DNA of 56,789 nucleotides from Eubacteriales bacterium (GTDB lineage Bacteria > Bacillota > Clostridia > Oscillospirales > CAG-272): the NCBI GenBank assembly GCA_045532575.1, contig JAZSGE010000016.1, forward strand, positions 1 to 56,789, written 5' to 3'. Below, in pieces: positions 43,647 to 46,870 of the stretch (positions are counted from its first letter, which is position 1; the number at the start of each line of letters is the position of its first letter). Both the position numbers and the translations under genes were made by a program. The notes beneath the pieces are model-generated. The model saw nothing but the letters and a program-made list of their open reading frames with translations. It was not told the DNA's origin and made no database searches.

Positions 43647-43740
43647 TTTTGCGTTTTAGTCAAGATTGTTCCTTGATTTTACTACTTTTTTGTTGTATTA
43701 TGAGGTTGAAATCACCCAAGAAGGGCAAAAAGGAGACGCT

Positions 43741-45135
43741 ATGTATTACGAAAACAAAACGGCCAAGGACCTGAAGATCGCCTATATCGGCGGCGGCTCG
43801 CGCAGCTGGGCACGGAATATGATGAGCGACCTGGCGCTTGAGCCCGCGCTCTCGGGCACCGTCTATCTCTACGATATCGACCGCGCCTCGGCGGAGCAGA
43901 ACGCCATCATCGGGAACGATATCTCCTACCATCACCCCGAATACAACAACTTCAAATACGTCGCCACCGATACCGCCGAGGAGGCGCTGGACGGTGCCGA
44001 CTTCGTCGTGATGTCGATCCTCCCCGGCACCTTTGACGAAATGGAGTCCGACGTCCATACCCCCGAGAAGTACGGCATCTATCAGGCCGTTGGCGATACC
44101 GTCGGTCTTGGCGGCCTCGTCCGCGCCCTGCGTACCCTGCCGATCTTCGAGGACTACGCCCGTCTGATCGAGCGCTACTGCCCGAAGGCGTGGGTCATCA
44201 ACTACACCAACCCCATGACCGTCTGTACCGACATCCTCTACAAGACCTTCCCCGGCATCCGCGCGATCGGCTGCTGCCATGAGGTCGCGGGCACGCAGAT
44301 CGTGCTTCGTGATGCCCTTGAGGACATCCTCGGTCTTACCAATGTCTATTTCCCGGATATCAAGGTCAACGTGATGGGTGTCAACCACTTCACCTGGCTG
44401 ACCTCCGCCACCTACCGTGATATCGACGTCTTCCCCGTCTTTCGTGCCTTCTGCGAAAAGTACCAAAAGACCGGTCACGGCCGTGAAAAGTCGAATCAGA
44501 ACTGGATGAACCGCTTCTTCAAGTGCGATCAGCGCGTCAAGATCGATCTCTTCCTCCGCTACGGCTATATCGCCGCGGCGGGCGACCGTCACCTCGCCGA
44601 GTTCTGCCCGGCCGCGTGGTATATGAAGGATCCCGAGACCGTGGAAAGCTGGGGCTTCAGCCTGACCCCTGTCAGCTGGCGCCGTGAGCGCACCCGTGAG
44701 CTGGCGGAGCGAGGCGCGCGGATGGCGAGGCGCGAGGAGCCCTTTAAGATCACGCCGTCCGGCGAGCTGGGTGTCGCCCAGATGAAGGCTCTCCTCGGCC
44801 TTGGCGACCTTGTCACCAACGTCAACCTCCCGAACCGCGGGCAGATCCCGAACCTGCCCCTCGGCGCCGTCGTTGAGACCAACGCCTACTTCACCTCGGG
44901 GAGCATGGTACCGATGTTTGCCGGCGAAATGCCCGGCCCGATCCTCGGTCTTACCGAGCGCATCGTCGCCAACCAGCAAATGCTGGTCGAGGCGGTCATG
45001 AAGCGCGACCTTGACCTCGCCTTTGAGGCCTTCCTCGCCGATCCCCAGAACACCCTCGACATCCCCACCTCGAAGAAGCTCTTCCGCGAGATGCTCGAGA
45101 ACACCAAAAAGTACCTCGCAATGTACGACCTTTGA
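43741..45135 (+). CDS. GH4 alpha-galacturonidase (LplD-like)
   Basis: IGGGSR.W, INYTNPM, CCHEV (CHEV subfamily signature), NHFTW and AGDRHLAEF. Confidence 0.9.
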   Translation: MYYENKTAKDLKIAYIGGGSRSWARNMMSDLALEPALSGTVYLYDIDRASAEQNAIIGNDISYHHPEYNNFKYVATDTAEEALDGADFVVMSILPGTFDEMESDVHTPEKYGIYQAVGDTVGLGGLVRALRTLPIFEDYARLIERYCPKAWVINYTNPMTVCTDILYKTFPGIRAIGCCHEVAGTQIVLRDALEDILGLTNVYFPDIKVNVMGVNHFTWLTSATYRDIDVFPVFRAFCEKYQKTGHGREKSNQNWMNRFFKCDQRVKIDLFLRYGYIAAAGDRHLAEFCPAAWYMKDPETVESWGFSLTPVSWRRERTRELAERGARMARREEPFKITPSGELGVAQMKALLGLGDLVTNVNLPNRGQIPNLPLGAVVETNAYFTSGSMVPMFAGEMPGPILGLTERIVANQQMLVEAVMKRDLDLAFEAFLADPQNTLDIPTSKKLFREMLENTKKYLAMYDL

Positions 45136-45224
45136 TCCTGCCTCGGGATCGCCGAGAGAAAATCAAAAAAGAGCATCCGAGAGGGGTTCCTACCATAAAG
45201 CAGATTTTGACCTGCCGAAAAAGC

Positions 45225-45260
45225 AAAAGGAGTACGAGCAACGTTGCTCGTACTCCTTTT
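45225..45260. terminator. Perfect 36-bp palindrome / terminator
   Basis: AAAAGGAGTACGAGCAAC|GTTGCTCGTACTCCTTTT. Confidence 0.8.
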
Positions 45261-45329
45261 CGCACACCTTGCCTGCAAGGTATGGTGTGTTGCACCTCTT
45301 AGGTGTACTGTCGGGTGGTAAGCATATAA

Positions 45330-45507
45330 GTGAAATGTTTTGCTGTCGCGAAACGTGAAATAATATGCTGCTCGCATATTGTGAAATATCTCACTGCGTT
45401 CGATGTGAAATGAAATTTGCCCACGTTCGCGTAGCGAACATTTCACATTTGCAAGGCAAATATTTCACCGCGAAGCGATTTCACTTGCCCGAATGAGCAA
45501 ATTTCGT
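45330..45507. repeat. Mirror-symmetric GTGAAAT/ATTTCAC heptamer-hairpin array
   Basis: GTGAAAT at 45330, 45355, 45381, 45405; ATTTCAC at 45440, 45462, 45478 (ATTTCGT at 45501); a different small hairpin in each spacer. Confidence 0.85.
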
Positions 45508-45508
45508 T

Positions 45509-45536
45509 GGGGCACCTGCTTTATCGCAGGTGCCCC
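45509..45536 (-). terminator. Stem-loop downstream of ftsZ
   Basis: GGGGCACCTGC-tttatc-GCAGGTGCCCC. Confidence 0.65.
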
Positions 45537-45560
45537 GAGGGGCGGCTCTTCTTTTTTCGT

Positions 45561-46715
45561 TTAAATGTCGCGCTTAGCGCCCTTGAAGGGCTTATGGAAG
45601 ACGCTCAGGGCATCCTCGAAATCGGCATCCGAAAGGGTCGCTGTCGGTGTCTGGCGCGGGGTGGGTGCCTCGGCAGGTGTTTCAGCGATGCCGGTAAAGA
45701 TCGGCTCCTCTGCGGTCACGGCCGCGCGGCGCTCGAGGGTACCGAGGGGCTTCTTGGCTCCCTCAAAGCCGGTGGCAATGATGGTGATGCGGAGCTCGTC
45801 CTCAAGGAGGGGATCGAAGGTCGCACCCCAGATGATGTTGGCATCGGGATGGCTCTCGGCCGCGATGATGTTCGAGGCGAGATAGATGTCGTCAAGCGGC
45901 ACATCGGGCGCGCCCGTGATGCTGGCGAGGATGCCGGTCGCCCCGGCGATCGAGGTCTCGAGCAGGGGAGAGCAGATGGCCTGCTTGGCCGCGATCTCGG
46001 CCTTGTCGGGCCCCTTGCCGCAGCCCATCGCCATGTGGGCAAGGCCCGCATCCTTCATGATGGTGCTGACGTCGGCAAAGTCGAGGTTGATAAAGCCCGG
46101 GACATTGATGAGCTCGGAGACCGAGCGTACGCCCTGCAGGAGGACGTCATCGGCGATCGCAAAGGCGTTGGCCAGCGTGATCTTGGCATCCGAGACCTGC
46201 TTCAGGCGGTCGTTCGGGATCACGATCAGCGAATCGACCACCGAGCGGAGGGTCTCGACCCCCATCTCGGCCTGGGCGATACGCTTTTTGCCCTCAAAGG
46301 CAAAGGGCATCGTCACGATACCCACGGTCAGGATCCCCATGTCATGGGAGGCCGCGGCAATGACGGGAGCGGCGCCCGTGCCGGTTCCGCCGCCCATGCC
46401 GGCCGTCACAAAGACCATGTCGGCACCCTTGATCTGCTCGCGGATCTCATCGAGGTTCTCCTCGGCCGCGAGGCGCCCGATCTCGGGGTTCGAGCCGGCA
46501 CCGCGACCGTTCGTCGTCTTCTGCCCGATCTCGATCTTGGTCGAGGCGCGCGAGGCGCGGAGCGCCTGCCCGTCGGTATTCACGGCGATGAACTCGACCC
46601 CGTGGATGTTGCTCGATATCATGCGGTCAATGGCGTTGTTGCCACCGCCGCCCACACCGAACACCTTGATCACGATGCCGGCGCTTGCTTCTCTTTCGTT
46701 CATTTCAAAATCCAT
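45561..46715 (-). CDS. ftsZ: Cell division protein FtsZ
   Basis: [22 protein letters not shown] tubulin signature and INLDFADV. Confidence 0.97.
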
Positions 46716-46824
46716 GATGACCCTCCGTTTTGTAAGGTGAGGTTTACAAGAAATAACGGTGTGTGCCGTGTGTGGCGGAAAAACCGACGGCAAAGGGAGG
46801 CTTGCCTCCCAACACCTATATATA

Positions 46825-46852
46825 ATTATACCATTTTCGACACCGATTGCAA
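46825..46852 (-). promoter_or_regulatory. ftsZ promoter with an embedded Spo0A-box match
   Basis: TTGCAA-16-TGgTATAAT with TGTCGAA (46842-46836) in the spacer. Confidence 0.6.
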
Positions 46853-46870
46853 GCCCCAACACCAATTTTT

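Follow-up and report, generated by a model that had tools for sequence, protein, structure and literature searches.

The question raised by this locus is what a mirror-symmetric run of heptamers and small hairpins represents when it fills the gap between two convergent protein genes. The locus lies in a stretch of 56,789 nucleotides, hereafter called the window, which is contig JAZSGE010000016.1 (positions 1 to 56,789, forward strand) of assembly GCA_045532575.1 from a Eubacteriales bacterium (Clostridia, Oscillospirales, CAG-272); the two genes encode a family-4 glycoside hydrolase (GH4) and FtsZ. An earlier note, made from the sequence alone, had taken the array for a candidate structured RNA or non-autonomous mobile element and could not assign it to a named family. 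Our analysis identifies the array as two convergent units of the Rfam family Gut-1. We further propose, with a probability of roughly 0.45, that the block is a non-autonomous, gene-less copy of a dyad-symmetric DNA cassette, that its heptamers would be sites for a cognate pentameric protein, and that it would act as DNA. The parts of the array are as follows.

45328..45416, plus strand: the "weak" arm, four GTGAAAT linkers with longer hairpins; matches Rfam RF01706 below the cut-off
45435..45509, minus strand: the "strong" arm, a degenerate first linker and then three GTGAAAT, with short triloop hairpins between them; matches Rfam RF01706
45330, 45355, 45381 and 45405, plus strand: GTGAAAT linkers, read in the sequence
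45440, 45462 and 45478, in plus-strand reading: ATTTCAC linkers, with a degenerate ATTTCGT at 45501, read in the sequence
45425..45439: central hairpin at the dyad, containing the mini-hairpin core GCGTAGC on the plus strand at 45429-45435 (sequence and motif scan)
45412..45422, plus strand: inner 11-mer, the complement of 45495-45505, which competes with the first local hairpin of the strong arm
45495..45505, plus strand: outer 11-mer, the partner of 45412-45422, with one mismatch in the window copy
45342..45349, minus strand: mini-hairpin core in the weak-arm region (motif scan)
45470..45476, plus strand: mini-hairpin core GCGAAGC in the strong arm (motif scan)

When the whole window was scanned with all Rfam families, the strong arm matched Gut-1 (RF01706) over the full model, positions 1-77, with 60.4 bits and an E-value of 2.6e-11. 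This was the sole match above a curated cut-off, the gathering cut-off of RF01706 being 50 bits. The weak arm reached 38.8 bits and an E-value of 7.5e-06, which is under the cut-off. Since both arms match Gut-1, the mirror symmetry is that of two convergent Gut-1 units. Other Rfam matches in the region, among them Spd-sr07, mir-4818 and SdsR, had E-values of 0.36-8, far under their cut-offs, and were rejected, and no rRNA was matched in the window at Rfam cut-offs. The pattern of three compensating hairpins linked by GUGAAAU is present in the window copy, as judged from its sequence and from a set of 27 unique elements described below. The Rfam scan thus supplies the family name that had been missing, and the motif itself can no longer be called novel, a match to a described Rfam family being what the earlier note had said would take its novelty away.

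Statements on papers cited here by PMC number refer to the excerpts of them that were available. Gut-1 was listed by Weinberg et al. in 2010 as a probable non-coding RNA with 43 representatives, from human-gut metagenomes only, and the available part of that listing gives no function, convergent pairs, copy number or protein partner (PMC2864571). In Rfam the family type is "Gene; sRNA". Searches of the full-text literature for Gut-1 or RF01706 turned up only this paper and a 2026 structure-prediction benchmark. With the motif catalogued already, the window element adds one more member to a family that is known but unexplained. It shares with the listed RNA the three small covarying hairpins split by GUGAAAU (also GUGAUAU) linkers and the occurrence in gut bacteria. 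It differs from Gut-1 as listed in the excerpt of PMC2864571 in being a mirrored pair within a 405-nt modular repeat and in being found in metagenome-assembled genomes (MAGs) from ruminant, horse, chicken and human guts.

The sequence-level description of the array held up well. All eight heptamers (four GTGAAAT, three ATTTCAC and one ATTTCGT) and the five short hairpins named in the earlier note are present, and the 11-mers at 45412 and 45495 are complementary with a single mismatch. In other copies of the element this 11-mer pairing is perfect. Through this long-range pairing the centre is connected with the 5' end of the strong arm; both sides of the pairing change between linker families and copies, the types being TTGCCC, AAATCC, TCGCC and CCACCC. 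Counted on both strands, the window contains 11 GTGAAAT sites against 4.04 ± 1.96 expected (at most 9 in 100 shuffles), and seven of the 11 are clustered in 155 nt. Folded as RNA, the region 45322-45565 gave -94.1 kcal/mol on the plus strand and -86.8 kcal/mol on the minus strand, with z-scores of -6.5 and -6.0, respectively, and none of 200 shuffles was equal. The minimum free energy folds pair left with right heptamers, as in the rod with side hairpins that had been suggested; any mirrored repeat would fold in this way, so that the folds are no evidence for a rod.

The block is not a single-copy device but one copy of a repeat. The assembly to which the window belongs (2.0 Mb in 148 contigs, 95.7% complete) contains 36 Gut-1 matches at E ≤ 1, of which 13 are over the cut-off, and convergent pairs of a strong and a weak arm, about 20 nt apart, were found at nine places. 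Many of the matches lie less than 150 nt from a contig end, which indicates that the element breaks the assembly. In a blastn comparison of the window with its own genome, the repeated unit was found to span 405 nt, 45162..45566, filling the gap between the convergent GH4 and ftsZ genes, with 95% identity to positions 26029-26426 of contig C9. Sub-modules of this unit also occur on contigs C30, C31, C70, C53, C71, C72, C98 and C145. The earlier note had placed the array correctly at 45330..45507 and had drawn the element too small; its idea of a multi-copy, gene-less, modular repeat is borne out by the blastn copies and by the Gut-1 matches.

Altogether, there are about 28 arrays with at least four linker heptamers in the genome: three are full-length with a gene and about 25 are orphans. 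When copies were compared side by side, one architecture was seen across linker types, the second arm carrying the reverse complement of the linker. The linkers are the following.

GTGAAAT: about 12 copies
GTGATAT: about 11 copies
ATGAAGC: 3 copies
GTTATGA: 1 copy
TCGATAT: a one-directional array on contig C36

The last of these, a fifth linker type, is repeated four times in one direction at C36:15123-15237, with unlike hairpins between the repeats and terminators on both sides. On contig C144, two ATGAAGC arrays (815-1100 and 2500-2720) lie 1,685 nt apart behind an identical upstream stretch of about 120 nt, and the second array ends after its first arm. At C79:4248-4330, a sequence that ends like the 3' terminus of a structured RNA (...CCA) stands just upstream of the terminator that precedes a GTGAAAT array at C79:4368.

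How the copies vary shows what is kept constant in them. Covariation was counted per unit, by script, in 27 unique complete elements taken partly from this genome and partly from public MAGs; a whole-element MAFFT alignment misregisters the left arm. The A-type linkers were exact in 169 of 175 instances (73/75 in the left and 96/100 in the right arm), and each of the five hairpin slots held 19-25 distinct sequences among the 27 elements. At most stem positions 2-5 Watson-Crick pair types were found, one position being invariant, and at almost all positions the number of paired sequences was above the mean of 500 partner shuffles, mostly by a wide margin. The stems are thus held by compensatory change and the linkers are fixed, in agreement with the selection on a fold that had been supposed from the window copy. 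Identical linkers combined with unlike hairpins would be expected if a factor with identical subunits reads the linkers, while arm-arm pairing alone would need complementary partners and not identity among all linkers.

A candidate for such a factor is encoded beside some of the arrays. The genome has exactly three matches to the family PF05635, to which tblastn added none, and each of the three genes has a mirrored array directly upstream of its promoter, with a private linker. These three full-length loci are referred to as master copies.

Contig C99: linker GTGAAAT, located after tRNA-Gln and a terminator
Contig C79: linker ATGAAGC, located after tRNA-Cys and a terminator
Contig C12: linker GTTATGA, located after a protein gene and a hairpin

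The C99 master has the GTGAAAT/ATTTCAC linkers and the same long-range 11-mer as the window array, to which it is 83.6% identical over 183 nt. There is no PF05635 reading frame at the window copy, whose neighbours are GH4 and ftsZ, and the window copy is thus at most a gene-less derivative of the cassette.

The same arrangement was found in other genomes. In a set of 32 PF05635 loci from 27 genomes, a mirrored array lies upstream of the gene at 22 loci by an exact-7-mer rule and at nine more by eye, the latter having degenerate linkers, a single arm, or an array cut by a contig end; none was found at locus L154. At least 15 different heptamers are represented among the 32 loci. The promoter, often with an extended -10 element, is situated between the last linker and the ribosome-binding site, and its -35 box abuts or overlaps the last linker. 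At 20 of the 32 loci a co-oriented tRNA gene is located just upstream, with nine tRNA identities in all. The terminator hairpin before the array is near-identical behind different tRNAs (C99, L165, L160) and therefore travels with the cassette. No conserved downstream partner gene was found among 35 open reading frames scanned: the 19 with a Pfam match belong to unrelated families, with no transposase among them, and 16 had no match.

Some of these loci depart from the common layout. At L169 and L180 the mirrored heptamers (CTTACTT-like and ATTATTC-like) are directly tandem, about 5-6 per arm, with no hairpin spacers, which suggests that the heptamer is the essential unit and that the hairpins are optional. 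The tRNA-Cys site is occupied by the ATGAAGC cassette in the present genome (L149) and by TATGnAAT-type cassettes in three other species (L173, L174, L176), and related cassettes are also found behind different tRNAs. It seems that tRNA-terminator sites are where cassettes are exchanged, or that cassettes are targeted to them.

Gut-1 and PF05635 also occur together at the level of whole genomes. Of 41 relatives sampled, 28 had Gut-1, with up to 39 matches per genome, and they belong to several families of the order. Both Gut-1 and PF05635 were found in 25 of these relatives, Gut-1 only in three, PF05635 only in two and neither in 11; of the three with Gut-1 only, one genome is 63% complete and two have 1-2 weak matches. 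A second sample comprised 151 genomes of the order, 150 of which had a completeness of 90% or more and a contamination of 5% or less; at E ≤ 1e-5, 56 had both, seven Gut-1 only, 16 PF05635 only and 72 neither, which corresponds to an odds ratio of 36 among relatives that are not independent. Within families the positive sets nearly coincide, being the same 6/8 genomes in family f20, the same 5/8 in f21 and 0/8 for both in f27. The genomes with PF05635 only can be explained by the Rfam model seeing only some linker types. At nine further places in the 151-genome sample, Gut-1 lies about 140-390 nt upstream of PF05635 on the same strand.

The clades of the 32 proteins follow the linker class across species and families, and the residue before the invariant Arg of a conserved helix-2 motif differs between the clades.

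Linker class xTGAAAT: helix-2 motif NQLERS
Linker class TGAAG-type: helix-2 motif NQIGRS
Linker class GTGATAT and GTTATGA: helix-2 motif NQL(L/M)RS
Linker class TATGnAAT: helix-2 motif FQLRKS

The match between clade and linker is one of long co-inheritance and not proof of recognition. The proteins are about 116 amino acids in size, belong to the four-helix-bundle family TIGR02436 and match PDB 2RLD (5 chains) with an E-value of 4e-22. A Xanthomonas homologue is cited as a homopentameric toroid (PMC4990558, PMC3936711), and PF05635 has been equated with the Avd protein of diversity-generating retroelements (DGRs; PMC10053308). No match to the defence and phage families of PADLOC or PHROGs was obtained for the three proteins of this genome.

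Whether the array works as RNA or as DNA is a question on which its loops bear. Read on the strand of the upstream gene, strong-arm loops are T..C in 25/35 and weak-arm loops G..A in 39/46, and nearly all loops are closed by C-G. The core GCG(N1-2)AGC occurs in 0/36 strong-arm spacers on the upstream-gene strand versus 16/36 on the opposite one, and in 19/67 weak-arm spacers on the upstream-gene strand versus 0/67 on the opposite one. Pooled by sense, it is present in 35/103 distinct spacers on the ATTTCAC-sense strand and in 0/103 on the other. With the relaxed core CG(N1-2)AG the counts were 0 vs 25 in the strong arm and 47 vs 2 in the weak arm, or 72 vs 2 in favour of the ATTTCAC sense when pooled. 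Both arms thus have their C(GNA)G or C(GNNA)G loops on the ATTTCAC-sense strand, running 5' to 3' outward from the dyad. This is the strand opposite to the Rfam orientation, so that the stable loops set the elements apart from Gut-1 as catalogued. At 20 master loci with other linkers the loop direction was the same (52 vs 19), with one lineage reversed. The window copy contains three such mini-hairpin cores, at 45429-45435 and 45470-45476 on the plus strand and at 45342-45349 on the minus strand.

Such cores are known from DNA. For the oligonucleotides d(GCGAAGC) and d(GCGNNAGC) the melting temperature is about 70-76 °C, for r(GCGAAAGC) it is 39 °C, hairpins with TTC or TTTT loops are of ordinary stability, and mini-hairpins are known at single-stranded phage origins, at ssiA and at N4 promoters (PMC13037366). 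The core in the spacers is that of the mini-hairpin DNA d(GCGNAGC)/d(GCGNNAGC), on one strand only; the known examples in that source are single hairpins, not arrays linked by a constant heptamer (PMC13037366). A motif that is stable as DNA, used strand-specifically and with dyad symmetry, is more readily reconciled with folded DNA than with a single transcript, and the loop sequences therefore point to folded DNA rather than to a single RNA.

The Rfam classification implies a different answer, namely that Gut-1 is a stand-alone structured small RNA (sRNA). Each arm would be transcribed towards the centre into a three-hairpin RNA linked by GUGAAAU, which would act in trans, for example by sponging up an RNA-binding protein that recognises the single-stranded heptamers. 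This is in line with an Rfam model built on covarying hairpins and with the classification as a likely non-coding RNA (PMC2864571), with the strong stem covariation, and with an excess of G.U over A.C on the upstream-gene strand (15 vs 6 in total; 5 vs 3 in the strong and 10 vs 3 in the weak arm). The array is also probably co-transcribed with ftsZ, the hairpin at 45509-45536 having no U-run on that strand. However, in the GUGAAAU sense the loops are UNC triloops and the stable GNA/GNNA loops are on the opposite strand (0 vs 35 of 103), and no sigma-70-like promoter was found in 45050-45700 on either strand (0 sites; shuffles average 0.5). In addition, the master copies sit between a terminator and a promoter, and some 28 copies with at least four linker types in 2 Mb are unlike a regulator gene. 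We therefore consider an sRNA unlikely.

Alternatively, the folded strands could be a DNA-structure signal that is read by the host independently of the four-helix-bundle protein, either as paired single-strand initiation or priming sites or as a folded recombination site of the attC type. The stable mini-hairpins, on opposite strands and directed 5' to 3' outward, would then lie on lagging-strand templates at a central bubble, and mini-hairpins are listed at single-stranded phage origins and at ssiA (PMC13037366). Some arrays also flank small accessory genes, as at locus L075. Such a signal would leave the private heptamers of each lineage and the co-occurrence with PF05635 unexplained, and dozens of ectopic priming sites would be costly; it seems to us quite improbable.

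The surroundings of the array in the window are relevant to both its transcription and its possible service to the neighbouring genes. They comprise the following features.

43666..45135, plus strand: gene of the family-4 glycoside hydrolase, convergent with ftsZ (Pfam Glyco_hydro_4 4.7e-57, Glyco_hydro_4C 1.5e-43)
45165..45321: right-hand module, which is a repeat in itself and accompanies GTGAAAT as well as GTGATAT arrays (blastn: C9, C70, C53, C72, C71, C98, C145)
45225..45260: 36-nt perfect palindrome, terminator-like on the minus strand with a T-rich tail (terminator scan, blastn self-match)
45509..45536: GC-rich 11-bp hairpin beside the ftsZ stop codon, a recurring module (sequence)
45561..46865, minus strand: ftsZ (Pfam Tubulin 1.9e-50, FtsZ_C 1.1e-28)

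The distance from the ftsZ stop codon to the strong arm is 51 nt. The array had been described as lying between two terminators, which is true of one side only. The palindrome is terminator-like: read from 45260 to 45225 it is the first good terminator on the ftsZ strand, and on the plus strand it probably serves to terminate GH4. The hairpin at 45509-45536, on the other hand, has no U-run on the minus strand, where an A-run comes before it. On the plus strand this A-run appears as a T-run following the hairpin, and the terminator scan gave weak terminator-like sites on that strand at 45531-45551. As the hairpin has no U-run on the ftsZ strand, the array may ride in the ftsZ 3' untranslated region (UTR). 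The array itself is not an intrinsic terminator, i.e., a GC stem with a direct U-run, for which the palindrome qualifies on the minus strand.

These flanking parts are themselves repeated within the genome. The GC-rich hairpin, in the same or a compensated form, precedes the array on C9, C31, C30, C70 and C83. The palindromic terminator recurs at no fewer than eight places in the genome (C9, C70, C53, C71, C72, C98, C145) and is combined with GTGAAAT or GTGATAT arrays, so that terminators here are repeated modules too. The right-hand module was also considered as the decayed promoter, ribosome-binding site and terminator of a master copy; this found no support, there being no blastn match to the module in any of the 32 PF05635 loci.

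The position after gene ends suggests an element that serves the host at 3' ends, a bidirectional insulator, terminator or mRNA-stabilising block as proposed for repetitive extragenic palindromic (REP) sequences and bacterial interspersed mosaic elements (BIMEs), with the link to PF05635 reflecting common descent only. Of the 25 elements listed for this genome, 12 have a strong arm that begins 30-60 nt past the stop codon of a co-oriented reading frame with high G+C at third codon positions (GC3), and a further two come after tRNA genes. GC hairpins or terminators lie on either side of the orphans, and the fold is very stable on both strands. Stability, however, leaves the invariant heptamers, the private linkers and the near-perfect co-occurrence with PF05635 unexplained. 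At eight readable loci of nine relatives (at L140 the computed stop was off the locus), ftsZ is followed by ordinary terminators and no array, which indicates that ftsZ has no need of the element. Between species, moreover, the element is more conserved than its flanking genes: copies of the window unit in other species of the genus are 87-96% identical (96% over 236 nt in G003, 87% in G019 and G044), compared with 65-82% for ftsZ in the same species set. The element is accordingly younger than the species or moves between them. On balance we think a host function at gene ends rather unlikely, and most likely the window element does nothing specific for ftsZ or GH4 beyond lying in the 3' region of ftsZ.

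The family reaches well beyond this genus. An exact-pattern scan of public species genomes returned at least 122 stretches; among the matches listed, many uncultured Clostridia of the ruminant, horse, chicken and human gut have mirrored elements, and unrelated tandem heptamers were met in other phyla. Several of the individual loci have unusual forms. L181:312-829 (minus strand; contig C68 of G023) is a one-directional GTGATAT array of about 24 units with no mirrored arm, composed of a 64-nt block of three unlike hairpin units repeated about eight times; it starts on the upstream stop codon, the TGA being within the first linker, and ends before the next gene. At L075:379-1267, two near-identical GTGAAAT arrays, each after its own terminator, bracket one small reading frame, a layout that resembles a gene cassette between repeated sites. 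In L030, from an Oscillospiraceae MAG, tandem GTGAAAT/GAGCAAT heptamers are mirrored by ATTTCTC/ATTTCTA and located at the 3' rather than the 5' end of a reverse-strand reading frame whose product looks four-helix-bundle-like by eye. GTGAAAT-plus-hairpin arrays of 3-4 units were also seen in gut MAGs of Verrucomicrobia (L012, L017 and L074; Akkermansia/Akkermansiaceae).

How could such copies have been spread? The earlier note had thought of a REP-like or miniature inverted-repeat transposable element (MITE)-like substrate of an HUH enzyme, and had suggested a search for co-occurring genes of a REP-associated tyrosine transposase (RAYT) or a reverse transcriptase. REP, BIME and REPIN (REP doublet forming a hairpin) sequences are extragenic palindromic units that form inverted pairs at gene 3' ends in tens to hundreds of copies, the REP unit being a single imperfect palindrome with a GTAG-type head. 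The present elements share the extragenic placement at gene 3' ends, and an origin by a dedicated enzyme, whether a Y1 transposase of the HUH/RAYT type or another, would be compatible with their mirrored arms, hairpins, near-identical copies and contig breaks. A strand-specific fold of single-stranded DNA is also what HUH enzymes use. Nevertheless, the unit here is an array of heptamers and mini-hairpins, and no match to the Y1 transposase family PF01797 was found in the genome (G000, 95.7% complete) by a search that detected it in 16/41 relatives and 6/14 control genomes. The family does not track Gut-1 either: G003, G018, G020, G023, G027 and G036 have 22-34 Gut-1 matches and no PF01797. There is no conserved enzyme gene beside the PF05635 genes, and reverse transcriptase (PF00078), the partner of Avd-like proteins, was not found in the genome. 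A MITE would have terminal inverted repeats, a target-site duplication and a related element with a transposase; here the arms are mirrored, there is no associated transposase and no target-site duplication was seen at the ends of the 405-nt unit in the comparison with C9. An exact 31-nt pattern of the ftsZ end, meant to reveal an empty site, was unmatched in metagenome contigs, and the ftsZ loci of relatives, which have no synteny with GH4, are too distant to serve as empty sites. Movement by a dedicated enzyme of this kind is thus very improbable. The fold as single-stranded DNA and the multivalent protein partner, which the earlier note had also considered, are both plausible in view of the loop asymmetry and of the adjacency and co-occurrence of PF05635.

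Returning to the gene-less cassette copy, the parts could work together in the following way. The heptamers would be the sites of the cassette's own homopentameric protein, with one protein lineage per linker. When the duplex opens, the C(GNA)G or C(GNNA)G mini-hairpins would fold on the outward strands, and the heptamers would remain exposed. The last heptamer of a master copy lies at the -35 box, and binding of the protein could thereby regulate its own gene. Orphans such as the window copy would be non-autonomous derivatives, persisting where they do no harm, directly behind gene ends. More tentatively, this may be extended to Gut-1 as a whole, which could then be the cis half of an undescribed two-part selfish cassette and not an RNA gene. 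Such a cassette would consist of a homopentamer of the S23p/Avd fold and a dyad-symmetric DNA array, whose outward-strand mini-hairpins would present a private heptamer "address", about five per arm and one per subunit. Each lineage would have its own heptamer-protein pair, gene-less arrays would be parasites of the cassette, and the same logic might hold for the intervening sequences (IVSs) of 23S rRNA and for heptamer arrays of Xanthomonas and Nostoc.

Several observations weigh against the cassette. Its weakest point is the GTGATAT family: although this linker is the second commonest, with about 11 copies, the assembly contains no gene cognate to it. In tblastn, three GTGATAT-associated proteins of other genomes led only to the three known loci, and the nearest protein to the GTGATAT-associated ones is that of the GTTATGA locus, with 64-65% identity. 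Seven of the 63 Gut-1-positive genomes have no PF05635 match. The correspondence between linkers and proteins could simply reflect neighbours being inherited together. None of the three proteins is basic, K+R vs D+E being 15/15, 14/14 and 19/16, which makes them unlike typical nucleic-acid binders. The whole array may be transcribed as the ftsZ 3' UTR, and GNA and GNRA loops stabilise RNA too. The G.U excess mentioned above and the tandem G.A/A.G seen in one hairpin (10/21 distinct sequences) are weak hints next to the far stronger signal of the loops, but would also fit an RNA read from the upstream gene. Finally, no target-site duplication, empty site or mobility enzyme was found.

The closest parallel is provided by the 23S rRNA IVSs of Coxiella and Leptospira, in which an S23p/PF05635 reading frame is combined with inverted-repeat arms as here; in Coxiella, three tandem GACAGAT heptamers stand before the reading frame, comparable to the heptamers of our elements, and IVSs with a reading frame are regarded as selfish elements of unexplained mechanism (PMC4990558). 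The arms of an IVS flank the reading frame, lie in rRNA and are cut by RNase III (PMC4990558). In the present cassettes, by contrast, both arms are upstream of the gene, outside rRNA and after tRNA or protein genes, with hairpins interrupting them; the window copy lies in an intergenic region flanked by protein genes and has no reading frame. The GGGAATC and GGGGAYT arrays of Xanthomonas and Nostoc are likewise dispersed intergenic heptamers with convergent pairs, and those of Xanthomonas campestris pv. campestris comprise about 186 sites with 70-75 convergent pairs on opposite strands; their heptamers are directly tandem without hairpin spacers and have been read as G-quadruplex formers (PMC4692102). 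A term search of the available text of that paper yielded nothing on S23p, intervening-sequence or four-helix-bundle proteins. By analogy, the Xanthomonas GGGAATC arrays are a probable published cousin of the present class.

Two further likenesses are more distant. Integron attC sites resemble the arrays by analogy in their folded single strand, their 7-nt boxes and the small accessory genes nearby, as at L075. The Avd protein of DGRs is a homologous pentameric four-helix bundle and works with a nucleic-acid template (PMC10053308); unlike in DGRs, no reverse transcriptase was found in the genome, there is no template/variable repeat pair, and the protein is not basic. No literature link of Gut-1 or of hairpin-heptamer arrays to PF05635 was found, bioRxiv supplements and subscription journals being outside the reach of the search.

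For the window itself the message is modest, namely that the block is no regulator specific to ftsZ or to the hydrolase gene. What the window contributes is the presence of three natural protein/heptamer pairs together with about 25 orphans in one genome, the quantitative co-occurrence, the correspondence of protein clade and linker, and a loop-strand asymmetry that argues for DNA. Gut-1 has been in Rfam since 2010 without a function, and PF05635 proteins outside DGRs and the reading-frame-bearing rRNA IVSs have been puzzles since the 1990s. If the heptamers are recognition sites of the pentamer, both orphans, Gut-1 and PF05635, would gain a partner at once. The idea is cheaply testable, as the three protein/heptamer pairs of one genome would serve as mutual controls. 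If it is true, a catalogued sRNA would be re-labelled as a DNA-level element, the assembly breaks in MAGs of gut Clostridia, where many copies lie at contig ends, would be accounted for, and the arrays would represent a class of mobile DNA without a recognisable transposase.

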